Shown here: piece by piece, positions 2,833-11,963 of the stretch
Layout: the number at the start of each line of letters is the position of its first letter
Numbering within the stretch: the stretch's first letter is position 1
Source: a virus
Strand: one strand, 5' to 3'
DNA: 11,963 bases
Virus genome (UHGV): UHGV-0046228
Notes under the pieces: model-generated
Told to the model about the DNA's origin: nothing
The model's input: only the letters and a program-made list of their open reading frames with translations
Databases searched by the model: none
Translations under genes and position numbers: made by a program

Positions 2833-3493
2833 GGGCACCACCTTGAACCTGTACCAGCGTGAGGCTTCCGCAGAACACGGCCCCCGTATCCATGTACATC
2901 TGGTTGGCATACTTCAGGGGCTGGCGCGCAGGGGTGTGGCCGAAGATAAACAGATCAGCACCAGCTATCGGCGAGACAATGCCGTCCTGAGCGTCGCTAA
3001 CCCGTTCACGATTCCAGATGACCATGTCTTTCGGGACCGGCTTGTCGAACGCATATTCGTTATGCGGGTAGTCAGCGTGGCAGATAACGATTTTACGTTC
3101 AGCGGTAACCAGCTCGATGACGAATGGCAGGCTGGCCGATTTATGAACCAGAGCCTTAGCCAGCACCTCTTTGTCATAGTCGAGATTGAAGAACCAACCG
3201 CCACCGTTTACCAGCCAGTGATTGACGTTCCCATACTCCGATAGCCCATCAATCATCATCTGCTCATGGTTTCCGCGCACCGCCCGGAACCACGGCATAG
3301 TAATAAGCTCCAGGCACTCGACGTTTTCCGCGCCGCGGTCAACAAGGTCACCAACCGATATCAGCAAATCATGCGCCGGGTCGAACGAAACTTTTTCGAG
3401 CTCATTCATCAGCAGCGTGTAGCACCCATGCAGATCGCCGACGACGAAGATATTGCGCCAGTCAGCGCCATTAATGCGTTGATACATGCTCAT
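2825..3493 (-). CDS. Serine/threonine protein phosphatase (lambda PPase / NinI-like metallophosphatase)
   Basis: Metallophosphatase motifs GDLHG, GDLVDRG, GNHE and strong co-linearity with lambda PPase ([35 protein letters not shown]). Start taken at ATG 3493..3491 (MSMYQRING...) with AGGAG 9 nt upstream; ATGA overlap with the ninE stop. Confidence 0.9.
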
Positions 3494-4317: not shown

Positions 4318-5070
4318 TCACTTCACCTTCCACTGCGGTGCTGCTGCAATCATCGCGCGGTATGCAGCCTGCATGTCGTTGTCATCATCGTCTGTGTACG
4401 GAGCCGAATCCCATGCTGCACGCATATCCGGAGTAAGCTCAACCGGCACCATCACCCAACCATCAGGAATCACCGGAGAGTTGCCACCCTGAACAGTAGG
4501 CATATCCGGACCTTTGCGAATCGCCCTGGCAAGATCGATTTGGTCGTCGTACAACCAGTCACCTGTTTGCGGATGATTGGCTTCTGCCAATTGTGCAGCC
4601 CACTCCAGGCCGTCTTTGTGTCCTTGCAGATAGTCCAGCGGTAACTCATCACTATTACTTACAGGTTCGGCCTGAAGCATGGCGGCGCGATAGGCGTTCC
4701 AGCCGACAGCTTTTCCGTGTTCAAACGCGCTGTCAAAGTCATCATCAATTTCCATCGCAGCGGGCACAGATACCGGCGCTGGCGGGGCGGTGTAGAGCGG
4801 CATTACCTCAATATTGAAGATATCCCCCTCGCTTGGACACGCCTCTGCGCTACCGTAAACCCAAGGGTGAACGACTCCGTTACGCTTGTTGATTAATCTG
4901 TGCGCCCACGCCACAGGCTCCGCTTCGAGCGATGCCAGCGCGATACGCGCATTATTAATCAGGAGGCTATCAGCAGGAGATAAAACAACATGAGCGTTAC
5001 CCTCCGCATCAATTTCAGAATTCGTAATTTTTCTGAACAGCTTTGCCAGTTCTCTGGTAATAGTGCTCAT
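4318..5070 (-). CDS. Hypothetical phage protein (250 aa), acidic
   Basis: Long ORF with ATG at 5070..5068, GGAG 8 nt upstream, ATGA overlap with the upstream ORF stop; acidic runs (EIDDDFD, YTDDDDNDM); no family recognised. Confidence 0.7.
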   Translation of the reverse strand: MSTITRELAKLFRKITNSEIDAEGNAHVVLSPADSLLINNARIALASLEAEPVAWAHRLINKRNGVVHPWVYGSAEACPSEGDIFNIEVMPLYTAPPAPVSVPAAMEIDDDFDSAFEHGKAVGWNAYRAAMLQAEPVSNSDELPLDYLQGHKDGLEWAAQLAEANHPQTGDWLYDDQIDLARAIRKGPDMPTVQGGNSPVIPDGWVMVPVELTPDMRAAWDSAPYTDDDDNDMQAAYRAMIAAAPQWKVK

Positions 5071-5345: not shown

Positions 5346-5692
5346 TCTCCTTTACCGGTGCCATAGGCAGATAAGCACTCTTCAAATCCAGCCTGATTAT
5401 CCGTTTGACCTAAACTGAAGCCATGCTGAAGACCATGACGAAATGCGCTATCTTGCAATTTATCTGCGCTATCGAGCTTCGCTTCCAGTTCAGCAATCCG
5501 CTCCTCATACCGAGCGCCAACGGAAACGGCTTTATGGAAGGCTTCGCACCATTTGGACGATTGCGCCTGCATCTTCTCCAGCTCATCCAGCAGCTCCAGC
5601 ACGTCGCGAGTGGGAACCATGAAGTTCGGAATGAAGTTATCTTTCGCTTTCTCTGCTGTTAGGCGCAGCGCCTGTTTGTCGATGTTGCTCAT
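5342..5692 (-). CDS. Hypothetical protein (116 aa) with central coiled-coil-like segment
   Basis: ATG 5692..5690 overlapping the stop of the upstream ORF (ATGA); charged heptad-like region ERIAELEAKLDSADKLQD; no family recognised. Confidence 0.6.
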   Translation of the reverse strand: MSNIDKQALRLTAEKAKDNFIPNFMVPTRDVLELLDELEKMQAQSSKWCEAFHKAVSVGARYEERIAELEAKLDSADKLQDSAFRHGLQHGFSLGQTDNQAGFEECLSAYGTGKGE

Positions 5693-6569: not shown

Positions 6570-6865
6570 GCTGACACCCTCCCGTAAAACGCCAGTACAC
6601 GCTGCATCGCCGGACTGTTTCGGCACTCCTGAAATATTCCGTTGGTGCAGCTACGCGCGGTACCAGCCTGCTCTTCCGGCGTAGCCAGGCGATAAGTCAC
6701 CGTTCGCCAGACCTTGCTCACCCGGATAATTTTTCGAGACTTTTCCAGATCGATAGCGTTCTTCGTGATGCAGTTGATGGTCATGCCGCACTCTGTGGCC
6801 ACATCCTTCGCGGTGAAGGTCCGGTGCGTTTCGAGATAACGCAGAATTGCCTGCTTGCCTTTCAT
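6566..6865 (-). CDS. ren: Ren-like protein (lambda Ren, resistance to Rex exclusion)
   Basis: 99-aa translation MKGKQAILRYLETHRTFTAKDVA...KVWRTVTYRLATPEE...FQECRNSPAMQRVLAFYG is co-linear with lambda Ren as recalled; ATGA overlap with the P stop; sits directly after P as in lambda. Confidence 0.8.
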   Translation of the reverse strand: MKGKQAILRYLETHRTFTAKDVATECGMTINCITKNAIDLEKSRKIIRVSKVWRTVTYRLATPEEQAGTARSCTNGIFQECRNSPAMQRVLAFYGRVSA

Positions 6866-7656
6866 TGAATAAGCCCTCTCTCTTTCCCGCGCTGATACTC
6901 TTCCCAAAGCCATTGGGCCGGGGTGAGAGCGCCGAGAGTCGCCGCATTTGGCATGCACCCGAAGCTTTTTCCTTCCGGGTGATAACCGGCCTGACGGCTC
7001 ACGTGATTTGTCGGGATCACTTCATCAGAATTCTCGAGCGCCAGGACGGGGGATGGTATTTTTTCCCCACCAGCAACTTTCAGCGCCCATTCCTCAAGTT
7101 TTTTTGACGCGTATTTTTCAGTTTCAGCCTCGCTCAGCTGGCGCTGGTACATCGCTCTGCGCGTATCGGTCACAATCCAGTACATGACGTCATGAGACCA
7201 CGGGAAAGCTTCTGCTCCGCCGGTATGCAGCCCTTTTTCGCGGCTATACCGATGGAACTCATTCATCACATCAGCCAGGCCAATGCCAAGTACCGTGCCG
7301 CTATCCTTGCACCATTTGATGAATTGCCCCGGAGAAGGCCAGAAGGGTGATTCACTGGCGCGGGCATGCCGTACACCTGCGGAAAGTTGTTCGCGGGTGC
7401 GGATCCCATTCTCTGAAAACGCTGCGATCCACTGACGCTTTGCCGTTTTCTCGTCTGCGTCAGTTTTCAGGTTTGTCTGCGTAGACGCAGGGAAAATCTG
7501 CTTCAGCTGCCGAAAGAGAGAATCAACGAGGCTTTCCGCTTCGGGATTTATTACCTTCTGCTGGTCGGCGTTTCCGTTAGCCATTCTGGATAGCAGTGCC
7601 CCGTCACGCCCGTTAACTGCCTGCACAAGTTGGTTATTCACAGGAAGTCCTCCCAT
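6862..7656 (-). CDS. P: Replication protein P (DnaB helicase loader)
   Basis: 264 aa, co-linear with lambda P as recalled (FPAS, RRQWIAAFSENGIRTREQ, PFWPSPGQFIKWC, YWIVT); start overlaps the 3' end of the O-like gene. Confidence 0.9.
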   Translation of the reverse strand: MGGLPVNNQLVQAVNGRDGALLSRMANGNADQQKVINPEAESLVDSLFRQLKQIFPASTQTNLKTDADEKTAKRQWIAAFSENGIRTREQLSAGVRHARASESPFWPSPGQFIKWCKDSGTVLGIGLADVMNEFHRYSREKGLHTGGAEAFPWSHDVMYWIVTDTRRAMYQRQLSEAETEKYASKKLEEWALKVAGGEKIPSPVLALENSDEVIPTNHVSRQAGYHPEGKSFGCMPNAATLGALTPAQWLWEEYQRGKERGLIQ

Positions 7657-8372
7657 CCCTCGCGGCTGTTCCAGTGAGGCGTTTCCTGCTCAGCACGTCC
7701 ACGTTTAGCCAGCGGGTTAACCCTGGCATTCCGGATCCAGACTCTGAAAGCCGAATTCCAGTCGATTAGCTGCGTGCCACGGGAAAGGTGATAGTCCCGG
7801 AAGTTCAGCAGCTCAGTTTCAATGCTCACCCCCTTCTCGGCAGCCATAGCAATGTGATCTGCCGACGGCTTAAACAGGGGCGGGAATGGAATCTCCCCGT
7901 TTGGTGAAATCCCGATCCGCCGCTTAGCGGCTTCGCTCATAAAACCATCGCGCCCAGAGAGAGAGTTAGGTTCAGTGACTGGTTCAAAAGAGTGACTGGT
8001 TCTGGTGCCATCTGGTGGCACAGGGGGTGTGCAATCAGATGGCATAGGGTGTGCTTCTTCGTGGCATACCCCTGTGCAATTTAATGGCATAGGGGTGGCA
8101 TCTAATTTCAGGTAATACACATTTGACGTGTTACCTTTTCCGTTGTTGACGCCAACACGGTTCTCACGCCTGATAAGCCCCATTTCTTCAAGCGCATCAA
8201 TATGGTTACGAACAGCCGTTCTGCTGCATTCGCATTGGTCGGCGATATGTTGATACGAAGGCCAGCATTCGCCTTTATCGTTGGCGTTATCGGCCAACTT
8301 AATCAGGACGAGCTTACGCAGTGAGTTTCCCACTTTGACCCCCATTGCTTTCGCCATAAGTGACATGCTCAC
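7638..8372 (-). CDS. Replication initiator, O-like (N-terminal winged-HTH, ori iterons in the coding sequence, C-terminal P-interaction-like domain)
   Basis: 244-aa ORF; N-terminal HTH-like segment (SRTAVRNHIDALEEMGLIRRE); iteron repeats fall in a Pro/Thr-rich linker; followed by P. GTG at 8372 with GGAGGT 5 nt upstream, alternative ATG at 8366. Confidence 0.8.
   Translation of the reverse strand: MSMSLMAKAMGVKVGNSLRKLVLIKLADNANDKGECWPSYQHIADQCECSRTAVRNHIDALEEMGLIRRENRVGVNNGKGNTSNVYYLKLDATPMPLNCTGVCHEEAHPMPSDCTPPVPPDGTRTSHSFEPVTEPNSLSGRDGFMSEAAKRRIGISPNGEIPFPPLFKPSADHIAMAAEKGVSIETELLNFRDYHLSRGTQLIDWNSAFRVWIRNARVNPLAKRGRAEQETPHWNSREGWEDFL
8003..8100. repeat. Origin-of-replication iterons inside the O-like gene
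   Basis: Four related units spaced about 22 bp: TGGCACAGGGGGTGTGC, TGGCATAGGGTGTGC, TGGCATACCCCTGTGC, TGGCATAGGGGTGGCA, preceded by inverted repeat GTGCCA...TGGCAC and flanked by an AT-rich tract (8101-8130). Confidence 0.6.
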
Positions 8373-8389
8373 GTGCTACCTCCGGTTTG

Positions 8390-8418
8390 TTTACTCTCTT
8401 CGATTTACTTGGCATAAT
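8390..8418 (+). promoter_or_regulatory. Candidate promoter for an OOP-like antisense RNA
   Basis: Plus strand TTTACT (8390-8395), 17-nt spacer, CATAAT (8413-8418), in the intergenic region between the YdaT-like gene and the O-like gene, pointing opposite to them. Confidence 0.3.
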
Positions 8419-8423
8419 TGCCT

Positions 8424-8500
8424 CGCAATTGACTGACGTTTATTGCACCAGAAAGCTGTTGGTGTTCGAGCACCACAGCTTTCGCCATTTCTGTTGTTCT
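8424..8500 (+). ncRNA. Candidate OOP-like short antisense RNA (about 70 nt)
   Basis: Predicted start about 7 nt after CATAAT; ends at a 13-bp hairpin (GAAAGCTGTTGGTG / CACCACAGCTTTC, 8451-8483, one bulged T, 6-nt loop) followed by T-rich GCCATTTCTGTTGTTCTC, abutting the YdaT-like stop. Confidence 0.3.
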
Positions 8501-9042
8501 CACATAACCCCCAGCATCGATGTCACCATCGTCATCAGCGGCCCTACCTGCTCCGGCATGAGGCGAAACAATGACGCTATGCCCTCGCTTACCTCCTTCA
8601 TTTTCTGGTGCTCAGGCGCGTTCAGGAGAACGGCTTGCTTTGCTTCTGAACATTCCTTCATGGCAGATGCGATCAGCGACATGGTGTCGTTCTGCTGCGC
8701 CAGGCGTGTACGAAACTCAACAGGAAGAACAGACATGATTGCCGGGGTCAGTTCTCTAACGTTCTCGCGGTACTGATCGGAGTCGACGCGGTTATCCAGA
8801 AAGCGCAAAGGATTCTGGCGAGCCCTGCTGATGTCTTGCAGGAAGCTGACGGCGGTACCGCCCTGCTCCCGGTATTCGTTGATGATCAGCGCTGACACTA
8901 CGTCCTGATTGTCCAGGGACGACGACCATGCACGGACCGCATCGCGGATTTTGTCGTGACCTGGCTCCGCCTTAGGTTGAGCGCGGTTTATCATCGCTCC
9001 CGGGTGTATTCCGGTATTGTGTTGATACGCAAGTGAATGCAT
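8500..9042 (-). CDS. YdaT-like protein (Rac-type; occupies the CII position)
   Basis: 180-aa ORF downstream of the cro-like gene; segment IINEYREQGG...ELTPAIMSVLPVEFRTRL parallels E. coli YdaT as recalled; AAGGGA SD 5 nt upstream of ATG 9042..9040. Confidence 0.65.
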   Translation of the reverse strand: MHSLAYQHNTGIHPGAMINRAQPKAEPGHDKIRDAVRAWSSSLDNQDVVSALIINEYREQGGTAVSFLQDISRARQNPLRFLDNRVDSDQYRENVRELTPAIMSVLPVEFRTRLAQQNDTMSLIASAMKECSEAKQAVLLNAPEHQKMKEVSEGIASLFRLMPEQVGPLMTMVTSMLGVM

Positions 9043-9072
9043 TGCTTTCCCTTTCGTGGTTAGAGCCGCCGG

Positions 9073-9294
9073 TTAGGCGGCAAAGATACCTGGATATAGA
9101 ACTTCGCGAGGAAGTCCGGTTACTTCTTCGTATTTACGCATTTTTGTTACTGGAAGGCTGCCACCTCGCTTTTTAAGCATATTGATGGCCTGAGGCGTTA
9201 CGCCGACCTTTTCAGCAAGCACCTTTTGAGAGCCGCCCACTGCATTAATGGCTTTCTCAAGCGGGGTGCTGGCGTTGGATTTTTTGTTGATCAT
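9073..9294 (-). CDS. Cro-like DNA-binding protein (YdaS / Cro-CI HTH family)
   Basis: 73-aa ORF with HTH segment GGSQKVLAEKVGVTPQAINMLKKRG; divergent from the repressor gene; GGAGC SD 5 nt upstream. Confidence 0.8.
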   Translation of the reverse strand: MINKKSNASTPLEKAINAVGGSQKVLAEKVGVTPQAINMLKKRGGSLPVTKMRKYEEVTGLPREVLYPGIFAA

Positions 9295-9314
9295 GTTTTG
9301 CTCCGCTCATGTGT

Positions 9315-9386
9315 AATCAACACCATGTTAATTCATGGCGTGGATTAAATCAACATTATGGTGATGGAAAAAATCCACATGTTGTT
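9315..9386. promoter_or_regulatory. Divergent operator/promoter region (OR-like) between cro-like and cI genes
   Basis: Three related sites: AATCAACAccaTGTTAATT (9315-9333), AATCAACAttaTGGTGAT (9348-9365), AATCCACAtgTTGTTT (9372-9387). Candidate pR on the minus strand: TTGATT (9353..9348), 17 nt, TAACAT (9330..9325), overlapping sites 2 and 1. Confidence 0.5.
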
Positions 9387-9411
9387 TACCATGCATGGAG
9401 CGGAGGGTTTT

Positions 9412-10131
9412 ATGAGCAGCATTTCTGAAAGAATTAAATTTTTACTGGCAAGGGAAGGCTTGAAGCAGCGGGATTTGGCTGAGGCTTTGTCGACTAGCCC
9501 ACAGACCGTCAACAACTGGATAAAAAGAGACGCGTTAAGTCGTGAGGCGGCGCAACAAATATCTGAAAAATTCGGTTATTCTCTTGACTGGTTATTAAAT
9601 GGAGAGGGTTCTCCAAAGAAGGATCTGGAGAGCAACATCCCGCCAGAGTCTGAGTGGGGAACTGTCGACGCTTGGGACAAAAATACCCCCCTACCTGACG
9701 ATGAGGTGGAAGTACCGTTTCTGAAGGATATCGAGTTTGCGTGTGGTGATGGGCGTGTTCATAGCGAAGATCATAACGGCTTTAAACTGAGGTTCTCCAA
9801 GGCAACGCTTCGCCGGGTAGGAGCTAACACAGATGGGTCTGGCGTTCTGTGTTTCCCGGCAACCGGTGACAGCATGGAGCCAATGATTCCAGATGGAACC
9901 ACTGTGGCTGTGGATACAAATAACAAACGCGTTGTCGATGGAAAACTTTACGCTATTGGACAAGGCGATGGTGGTGAAGGGCAACTAAAAAGAATTAAGC
10001 AGCTCTACAGGAAACCAGGCGGAAAGCTAATTATCCGCAGCTACAACAATGAGGCCTACCCTGATGAAGAAGCTGACATTGATGATGTTGAGATAATCGG
10101 CCGCCTCTTCTGGTACTCGGTATTGCTGTAG
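9412..10131 (+). CDS. CI-type prophage repressor (N-terminal HTH, C-terminal S24 LexA-like autopeptidase)
   Basis: Start at ATG 9412 (MSSISERIKF...) with GGAGG 5 nt upstream; HTH LKQRDLAEALSTSPQTVNNWIKR; S24 catalytic motifs GDSMEP (Ser) and LKRIK (Lys). Confidence 0.9.
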   Translation: MSSISERIKFLLAREGLKQRDLAEALSTSPQTVNNWIKRDALSREAAQQISEKFGYSLDWLLNGEGSPKKDLESNIPPESEWGTVDAWDKNTPLPDDEVEVPFLKDIEFACGDGRVHSEDHNGFKLRFSKATLRRVGANTDGSGVLCFPATGDSMEPMIPDGTTVAVDTNNKRVVDGKLYAIGQGDGGEGQLKRIKQLYRKPGGKLIIRSYNNEAYPDEEADIDDVEIIGRLFWYSVLL

Positions 10132-10235
10132 CGGTGGCCTGAAGAGACGTTTGGTTAAGGCCAGCAACGGATCACAACAAACACATGGGGCGGCGGATTA
10201 AGGGTGATGGAGAATCGAAATAAGTTGAGGTCAAC

Positions 10236-10391
10236 ATGAACACGTTCAGCATAATCGCGATACCTTTTTTTGCCCTTTCAGTGGTTCTGTTGACTCTTGG
10301 CGCTACCAGGAAGAACCAAGCCAGCTTCATCGTTGGCGGCGTGTTTATGGCGTCATGCGTGGTTAATGCCATTATCGGCATGTCTCTTTGA
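10236..10391 (+). CDS. Small two-helix membrane peptide (51 aa), immediately downstream of cI
   Basis: Manual translation MNTFSIIAIPFFALSVVLLTLGATRKNQASFIVGGVFMASCVVNAIIGMSL; two hydrophobic spans separated by RKNQ; GAGG SD 5 nt upstream; no convincing terminator between cI and this ORF. Confidence 0.5.
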   Translation: MNTFSIIAIPFFALSVVLLTLGATRKNQASFIVGGVFMASCVVNAIIGMSL

Positions 10392-10583
10392 GCGCTATGA
10401 GATCAGGCATCCTCGTTACTTTGTCATGTGTGACAGCCTGGTATGCACTCTGCGAGCTTTGATGTGGTTTACCACTTTAATAGTCACCGTATCACTAAAC
10501 TGATTAGCTTTACTCATACTCTTGTGGATTCGCTATTTCTGATGTCAATGCAAAAAAATACTAAGGAAACAAAAAGGATACTT

Positions 10584-10850
10584 ATGTCAGATAACACTAT
10601 TAAAATCATACCTCAGCACATGACCGCCACATCAGTTCTTATTACGCCTGATCGTGCTGAAACAATCATTACTTTTCACCGCCATGAATTTGAGCATCAC
10701 ATGCAGTCTGATGAGCAAGGAAAGAATAGCTTCCAAGTAAAAGTTGAGTTGACCCCTAACATGTCAGTCTCAATGAGCCCGGATCAAGCTGTTGCATTAG
10801 TAAAATCATTACAGGTAGCTCTCAGGGATAATGGGCTATGGAAAGACTGA
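10584..10850 (+). CDS. Hypothetical protein (88 aa), first gene of the AT-rich module
   Basis: Preferred start ATG 10584 (MSDNTIKIIPQHM...) with AAGGA 5 nt upstream; the longer track ORF (from 10443) lacks an SD. His-rich segment FHRHEFEHHMQ; stop overlaps the next gene's start by 13 nt. Confidence 0.5.
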   Translation: MSDNTIKIIPQHMTATSVLITPDRAETIITFHRHEFEHHMQSDEQGKNSFQVKVELTPNMSVSMSPDQAVALVKSLQVALRDNGLWKD

Positions 10851-11488
10851 AGCCAGTTTCTTCAGTTCAACCTACCTCAGGAACAACATCATCAGTTCTT
10901 CCAAGTATTATAGTTAGTGCAACCCTAGCAGCGACAACCGTTTCTCCTTATGGGGATCCATCTCAGTACCAAAGTATTGGTATTGATGCTAAGGTATCAA
11001 ATAGAGTTTCATACGCCATGGACGAAACGGGTTTGCGCCCAAGTAAGGAAGATGTAGCGATGAAGAGTGATACCCTGGAGGTAAGCGTGAGCGGAATGTC
11101 CAGAGAAGAACTTGACGCAAAGCTTTCACAAAACAAATCAGAGGTAGAGTCTATTGCTGCGGAAATGCGTCGCGAATCAGCTGACTTTAAAACCTATTAT
11201 ACTCAGCAATTTTCTTCTATTGAGAGAGGTATTGCTGAAATTAAAGGTGAAATCGGCGGTTTGAAAACGGGACTTACAACGACTCAGTGGGCGATGGCCG
11301 TTGGCTTGACTTTAGTTACTGTGATTCTGTCTGGCGTGATGTTAGCCTCAAGTTGGATTATCTCCGGCAATGACAAGTCACCATCAGTAACCAGCCCGGC
11401 TCCAATTATAATACAGGTACCGACACAGCAACCATTAACGAGCGCTCCAACTAACCAATCGTCATCACAACAAGCTCCTAAGCAATAA
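10838..11488 (+). CDS. Coiled-coil protein with C-terminal transmembrane anchor and Ser/Thr/Pro/Gln-rich tail (216 aa)
   Basis: Charged heptad-like region (SREELDAKLSQNKSEVESIAAEMRRESADFKTYY...ERGIAEIKGEIGGLKTGL), a single ~23-residue hydrophobic span (WAMAVGLTLVTVILSGVMLASSWII) and a low-complexity tail; AT-rich codon usage unlike the flanking phage genes; intrinsic terminator directly after the stop. Confidence 0.6.
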   Translation: MERLKPVSSVQPTSGTTSSVLPSIIVSATLAATTVSPYGDPSQYQSIGIDAKVSNRVSYAMDETGLRPSKEDVAMKSDTLEVSVSGMSREELDAKLSQNKSEVESIAAEMRRESADFKTYYTQQFSSIERGIAEIKGEIGGLKTGLTTTQWAMAVGLTLVTVILSGVMLASSWIISGNDKSPSVTSPAPIIIQVPTQQPLTSAPTNQSSSQQAPKQ

Positions 11489-11490
11489 AT

Positions 11491-11517
11491 AAACCCGGCC
11501 ACCGCGCCGGGTTTTTA
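11491..11517 (+). terminator. Rho-independent terminator after the AT-rich module
   Basis: AAACCCGGC-CACCGC-GCCGGGTTTTT: 6-bp GC stem extendable by three A-U pairs, T5 run, 3 nt after the TAA stop. Confidence 0.7.
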
Positions 11518-11963
11518 CTGCCCTACTCTTCCCTCAGCATCAGCACATCCAGTGCCAGCTCTACTGCCAAACAACCATCACCAAAAACAAAACGTAAAAT
11601 AAATATACTTTAAGTTCATTGACTTACATTTAAATGAACTATTGCCAAATTAAAAATGTCCTTTTGGTTCTTTACATTGATGAACCATTAGTCAATTTTC
11701 ATCTCATCCAAACAACAACGTTGGCGCCGGTGATAGGTAACAACGCTCCGTTAGCCGCGATAAGGCAAAGGTGAAGAGATGATCCGCGAAGAAGCCAAGC
11801 CTGCATGGCGTAGTTTTTGGTTAAAGGTCGTTCCGTTTTTGGTTGCTGTCCTTTTTTTTAGCTTCGCTTGCTGGGGTGGAAAATGAGCAATCACGCCCTT
11901 CCTTCCCTGATTTACTGCCTGCTCGTTTGAGGCGTACTCTGGGACGTATGGGTTTTACAAATT

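Follow-up and report, generated by a model that had tools for sequence, protein, structure and literature searches.

Probable phi80 operators OR1–OR3 in a mosaic lambdoid prophage, and a putative OL/pL module from a different immunity group

Operators and promoters between cro and cI

The three repeats in the intergenic region between the divergent cro and cI genes of virus genome UHGV-0046228 are very probably (about 95%, judged from the sequence) the operators OR1, OR2, and OR3 of the immunity region of phage phi80 (imm80), carried in a mosaic lambdoid prophage. The analyzed stretch of DNA is 11,963 bp long and is referred to here as the window. The intergenic region extends over positions 9295–9411, between cro on the minus strand and cI on the plus strand, and its length is 117 bp, not the 118 bp given in the first-pass annotation. 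Each of the three sites is 19 bp long. OR1 (9315–9333, AATCAACACCATGTTAATT) is proximal to cro and contains the −10 element of the promoter pR inside its right half. The left half of OR2 (9348–9366, AATCAACATTATGGTGATG) is formed by the −35 element of pR, and its right end overlaps the −35 element of the promoter pRM by 3 bp. OR3 (9372–9390, AATCCACATGTTGTTTACC) overlaps the −10 element of pRM. The start-to-start spacing is 33 bp between OR1 and OR2 and 24 bp between OR2 and OR3, in agreement with the three related sites of the first-pass annotation.

Positions 9285–9425 of the window, which span the whole intergenic region, are 100% identical to phi80 (JX871397) over 140 columns. The phi80 record holds three features labeled "protein_bind, CI, operator" at 3316–3334, 3349–3367, and 3373–3391 (L001 numbering), and an offset of +5999 places them on OR1, OR2, and OR3. 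In the older record, X13065, the "O-R region" corresponds to window positions 9315–9395, and an "O-L region" is marked further to the right. A megablast search of phage genomes with positions 9000–10200 retrieved HK225 and phi80, and the phi80 OR is likewise carried by HK225. The 117 bp are 100% identical in the cloning strains DH5alpha and DH10B, which contain phi80dlacZ remnants, and in NEB 5-alpha, and were found in 66 of 5,426 complete E. coli genomes. The OR element is thus already known and annotated in GenBank, and there is nothing new in the OR itself. T. Ogawa and colleagues reportedly characterized the organization of the phi80 early region, its operators, and its transcription (J Mol Biol, 1988).

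The operator and promoter assignments are those of the two GenBank feature tables (JX871397 and X13065). According to the phi80 annotation, pR occupies positions 9325–9353 on the minus strand and is composed of a −35 hexamer TTGATT (9353–9348), a 17-nt spacer, and a −10 hexamer TAACAT (9330–9325). This early promoter is directed to the left in the window, toward cro, cII, and the replication genes. pRM is located at 9364–9392 on the plus strand, with a −35 hexamer ATGGAA (9364–9369) separated by a 17-nt spacer from a −10 hexamer TACCAT (9387–9392). A generic sigma-70 scan of positions 9200–9500 called no promoter, because the hexamers of pR and pRM match the consensus at 8 of 12 positions. The weakness of pRM is expected for a promoter in need of an activator. 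The first-pass annotation had placed pR over sites 1 and 2, and the pR annotated in JX871397 has its −10 element inside OR1 and its −35 element inside OR2. The resemblance to the lambda OR1–OR3 layout that had been pointed out also holds, as the region is, base for base, the phi80 OR, in which the annotation places CI operators at the three 19-mers, interleaved with pR and pRM. An Rfam scan of positions 8000–11963 at gathering thresholds gave no matches.

A weight matrix derived from five phi80 operators scores OR1–OR3 at 23–26 bits, against 12.5 bits for the best match elsewhere in the window and a shuffle maximum of 15.1. Three of the five training sites are OR1–OR3 themselves, which makes this test partly circular. 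The palindrome AATCAACANNNTGTTGATT, with three mismatches or fewer allowed, is matched in the 11,963 bp by OR1 and OR2 only, with 0.06 matches expected, and two or more matches were reached in none of 200 shuffles. The half-site AATCMACA occurs five times in the window, against 0.92 expected, and three of these occurrences lie on the same strand within the 117 bp. Of the three sites, OR1 forms the best palindrome and OR3 a poor one, with a weight-matrix score of 7.0 on the reverse strand.

It could be argued that the repeats are functionless and resemble each other by chance, the intergenic region being AT-rich. Promoter regions often contain short AT-rich repeats, and the poor symmetry of OR3 would fit such an origin. 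However, two full-site matches were found where 0.06 were expected, three half-sites share a strand within 117 bp, the sites are identical to annotated phi80 operators, and relatives with diverged spacers keep both the sites and their spacing, as described below. A chance origin is therefore extremely improbable, and we regard it as already refuted by the conservation.

Two pairs of perfect inverted repeats are present in and next to the intergenic region. The arms of the first pair are 10 nt long (TGGATTTTTT at 9276–9285 and AAAAAATCCA at 9368–9377). Those of the second pair are 8 nt long (CTCCGCTC at 9301–9308 and GAGCGGAG at 9398–9405) and extend over the Shine-Dalgarno regions of both cro and cI. 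Because the pairs are interlaced, a single simple hairpin is impossible.

Conservation of the operators among relatives

The 76-bp operator block is present as an exact copy in 23 IMG/VR contigs. Ten contigs encode an identical CI, and all ten contain the same three sites. Exact-protein look-ups with CI, the 216-aa cassette protein, the 264-aa P-like protein, and the 242-aa O-like protein identified many mosaic relatives. Diverged relatives were drawn from GTDB representative genomes, in which the identity of CI is 87% or less. Relative to the ATG codon of cI, the sites are positioned at −97, −64, and −40 in Citrobacter (CI identity 82%, spacing 33/24), at −100, −67, and −42 in Pantoea stewartii (75%, spacing 33/25), and at −96, −63, and −39 in Rosenbergiella (66%, spacing 33/24). 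The consensus of the sites is kept in all three, and the spacers have diverged. In the four-way alignment, 40 of 57 columns are invariant in the sites, compared with 11 of 63 outside them (Fisher p = 5e-9). Conservation within the immunity type, on which the first-pass annotation had made its proposal depend, thus extends to the sites and to their spacing, in exact copies as well as in diverged relatives.

The helix TVNNWIKRD is common to the four CI proteins from the window, Citrobacter, Pantoea, and Rosenbergiella. No AATCMACA sites were found in a Raoultella relative, which shares only the C-terminal domain of CI and has a different helix. The operator motif therefore tracks the recognition helix of the repressor.

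It is also conceivable that the blocks were kept only as promoter elements and that the repressor binds elsewhere, given that the −35 and −10 elements of pR lie in the left half of OR2 and the right half of OR1, and that the −10 element of pRM overlaps OR3. The conservation of these two half-sites of OR1 and OR2 could indeed partly reflect the pR hexamers, and not repressor contacts. However, the left halves of OR1 (9315–9322) and of OR3 are located outside the hexamers, yet are AATCMACA-like and conserved. Furthermore, the motif pair recurs at the left operator OL in all 26 other imm80 loci discussed below, and the motif is lost where the recognition helix of CI differs. We consider conservation for promoter function alone very unlikely, and favor the reading of the three sites as binding sites of the phi80-type repressor.

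Immunity proteins and proposed switch

The cro gene (phi80 gene 30; 9073–9294, minus strand) encodes a 73-aa helix-turn-helix protein with matches to Pfam HTH_3 and YdaS, which is identical to phi80 gp30 in 73 of 73 residues. The cI gene (9412–10131, plus strand) encodes a 239-aa repressor composed of an N-terminal Phage_CI_repr/HTH_3 domain and a C-terminal Peptidase_S24 domain (E = 2.9e-16), and the serine motif GDSMEP is present. The CI protein has 89% overall identity to that of phi80 and is 100% identical over residues 1–117, including the helix-turn-helix. The C-terminal domain is nearer to those of HK225 and other prophages than to that of phi80. Since Cro and residues 1–117 of CI are identical to their phi80 counterparts, we assign the immunity specificity of the prophage to imm80. 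The gene on the other side of cro, cII (8500–9042, minus strand), is of the YdaT type, as in phi80 (Pfam YdaT_toxin), and is homologous to the phi80 cII region.

Residues 108–113 of CI read FACGDG (window 9733–9750), and the expected self-cleavage site is a Cys-Gly bond, where LexA-like repressors usually have Ala-Gly. The CI protein of phi80 contains the same FACGDG sequence. Phi80 CI is cleaved at the Cys-Gly bond.

By analogy with lambda, CI dimers bound to OR1 and OR2 would cover the −10 and −35 elements of pR and switch off the replication genes together with cro and cII. At OR2, the CI dimer is centered approximately 42 bp before the estimated start of pRM and would be placed to activate this promoter. 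At high concentrations of CI, OR3, with its center at about −18 and over the −10 element of pRM, would be filled and cI would be repressed. RecA-stimulated self-cleavage of CI would remove the repressor, and Cro bound to the same sites would then keep pRM off. The pRM start was estimated at about 7 nt after the annotated −10 element (~9399), and the distances of −42 and −18, calculated from the centers of OR2 (9357) and OR3 (9381), depend on that estimate. OR2 and OR3 of lambda sit at approximately −42 and −18 relative to lambda pRM. With promoters taken from the annotation and an estimated start site, the positions of the operators fit a lambda-type repression of pR, activation of pRM, and repression of pRM.

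As in lambda, cI and cro are divergent and are separated by three partially symmetric sites common to two repressors. OR1 and OR2 cover pR in both systems, OR2 is at about −42 of pRM, OR3 lies on the pRM core, and CI has an S24 self-cleavage domain. The lambda sites are 17 bp long, compared with 19 bp here, and have a half-site unrelated to AATCMACA. The spacings are 33 and 24 bp, compared to 24 and 23 bp in lambda. The cI mRNA described here has a short leader that includes a Shine-Dalgarno sequence, in contrast to the leaderless one of lambda, and the cleavage site of CI is Cys-Gly instead of the Ala-Gly of lambda. Because OR1 and OR2 are 33 bp apart, in contrast to 24 bp in lambda, lambda-type cooperativity between OR1 and OR2 is not to be assumed. 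For looping between OL and OR, the window offers no cognate OL.

Mosaic structure to the right of cI

A two-gene cassette at 10443–11488 on the plus strand encodes HK97 gp49- and gp48-like proteins of 135 and 216 aa. The cassette is 99.5–99.7% identical to HK225 and HK97 and is positioned between cI and the expected place of OL, where phi80 has gene 40A. A Pfam search with the 135-aa and 216-aa proteins gave no match. In the collection, 4,278 index blocks list the identical 216-aa protein, which, among the ten places listed, is adjoined by several different, unrelated cI types. This is how a mobile "moron" behaves.

The hairpin scan identified an intrinsic terminator at 11491–11514, which coincides with a mosaic joint. 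The terminator scan called the hairpin on the minus strand. The T-run at 11515–11519 is located to the right of the hairpin, and we therefore read it as a terminator of the plus-strand cassette and list it on the plus strand. The homology to HK225 stops at 11524 and that to Klebsiella phages starts at 11492, so the two overlap in a terminator that is common to both lineages. The DNA to the left of the joint is HK225/HK97 gp48-like, and the DNA to the right is Klebsiella-phage-like. On the other side of the immunity genes, the replication genes at 6860–8495, which encode an O-like protein (HTH_36) and a P-like protein, are approximately 78% identical to their counterparts in Klebsiella phage ST15-VIM1phi2.1. 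With DNA of another lineage on both sides, the imm80 cassette (8498 to ~10155) sits in a Klebsiella-type backbone.

The 48-nt sequence of the joint and the pL variant specific to the window are absent from IMG/VR and from JGI metagenomes. None of the complete E. coli genomes covers 80% or more of positions 9000–11963. A 35-aa open reading frame at 11779–11886 has no exact protein match on record.

Search for the phi80 left operator

The phi80 OL is a pair of AATCCACA-type sites, AATCCACAAGGTGTTGACC followed 23 bp later by AATCCACATGATGTTTAAT. All 26 other imm80 loci whose right flank is long enough contain the pair: 16 of 16 from IMG/VR, counted where the right flank measures 2.9 kb or more, and 10 of 10 contigs encoding the identical CI. 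It is located 1.6–2.9 kb to the right of OR in all 26, and in 24 of them it would fall inside the window. In the remaining two, the equivalent positions are 11939 and 12230, at or beyond the reach of the window. HK225, which matches window positions 9020–11524 at 96%, has a phi80-type OL approximately 250 bp past the point of divergence.

Between cI and position 11963, the weight matrix found no phi80-type OL scoring above the shuffle maximum of 15.1. The first-pass annotation had reported no matching copies at 11560–11720, and both the AATCMACA search and the weight matrix agree. Two weak phi80-type half-sites, at 10512–10530 (10.6 bits) and 4983–5001 (12.5 bits), were dropped as candidates for OL as they score below the same shuffle maximum. 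The prophage and phi80 thus share OR, pR, pRM, Cro, and the DNA-binding domain of CI, and differ in that the phi80 OL was not found in the window up to 11963.

In phi80 itself, the OL (L001 5422–5507) contains three further AATCAACA half-sites in direct orientation, starting at 5422, 5434, and 5452. A single 20-bp annotated feature lies over the first two.

OL/pL module from another immunity group

The AT-rich segment at 11570–11699 on the plus strand is 93% identical to Klebsiella phage ST15-VIM1phi2.1, and we read it as an OL/pL module that belongs to a different immunity group. Its distal operator (11604–11618, TATACTTTAAGTTCA) is intact, and its two promoter-proximal operators (11657–11671 and 11681–11695) are degraded. 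The pL promoter of the module is formed by a −35 hexamer TTTACA (11671–11676) and a −10 hexamer AATTTT (11694–11699) and reads on the plus strand. The homology extends beyond the module, as window positions 11516–11793 match the pL region of MK448228 with 93% identity.

ST15-VIM1phi2.1 and phage 2b LV-2017 (MK448228 and KY271395) have a tripartite OR as well, together with a pL region resembling that of the window. The operator motif of the ST15-VIM1phi2.1 lineage, TGWAC-N5-GTWCA, is unrelated to the phi80 motif, and the repressor gene of this lineage is absent from the window. With at most one mismatch, the motif occurs six times in 8.3 kb of ST15-VIM1phi2.1, against 0.5 expected. Three copies are located in its own OR and three in the pL module, where they flank a TTTACA-17-CATTAT promoter. 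A second locus (L065) contains three copies in OR, two in the module, and one elsewhere. The presence of the motif in both the OR and the module of this lineage identifies the AT-rich segment 11570–11699 as an OL/pL of another immunity group. On sequence grounds, phi80 CI is not expected to bind the module. The OR sites of ST15-VIM1phi2.1 (L031 2342–2413) are spaced by 24 and 33 bp from the cro side, a mirror image of the phi80 spacings of 33 and 24 bp.

The middle segment 11570–11694 varies among phages with the flanks 11516–11569 and 11695–11942 in common, and the version in the window is present in only five loci. In the three of these five in which the OR was examined, it is one and the same OR.

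A match to TGWAC-N5-GTWCA is left in one of the three operators of the window module, the distal one, and the −10 hexamer, CATTAT in ST15-VIM1phi2.1, is changed to AATTTT. Six substitutions in 11516–11781 are private to the window, and five of them fall within the 54 of 266 columns that belong to the −10 hexamer or to one of the two proximal operators (binomial p ~0.002). The four relatives have two to three private changes each, mostly elsewhere.

Discussion

We hypothesize that recombination at the common terminator put the OL/pL of another immunity group in the place of the cognate OL. Alternatively, and as raised in the first-pass annotation, a cognate phi80-type OL may be located beyond base 11963 and form a normal, matched pair with OR. 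The window stops 2.6 kb to the right of OR, and the positions 11939 and 12230 of the pair in two of the 26 imm80 loci would be compatible with such an arrangement. However, positions 11492–11942 follow the Klebsiella-type phages, and an annotated example of that lineage has gam, bet, and exo directly after the module. The slot between the cI-side cassette and the early-left genes is filled by the OL/pL of the other group, and a phi80 OL further on would require a second recombination joint. We consider an OL further to the right unlikely. Since the right-hand DNA belongs to another lineage with its own, different OL, it is more likely that the cognate OL was replaced than that it was displaced.

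An OR/OL hybrid prophage that lacks a cognate OL is the most economical reading of the window, and we hold it to be somewhat to rather probable. Stated in full, it would be a natural heteroimmune hybrid in which a complete imm80 switch, consisting of cII, cro, OR, and cI, is joined at a common terminator to an unrelated OL/pL from a Klebsiella phage; the odds for this description are slightly better than even. In such a hybrid, the foreign OL/pL would place the leftward early promoter outside the control of the prophage's own repressor.

The operators between cro and cI were rediscovered from the raw sequence and are of a textbook type, known from GenBank and from common cloning strains. If the prophage is a hybrid, the substitutions clustered in its OL/pL module may reflect decay once the cognate repressor had been lost, or selection in favor of a quieter pL. 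The joint would then be a case of natural recombination breaking the match between OR and OL that lambdoid phages are assumed to need, and the prophage would show how such a break is tolerated, either as a defective prophage or by a silenced pL.
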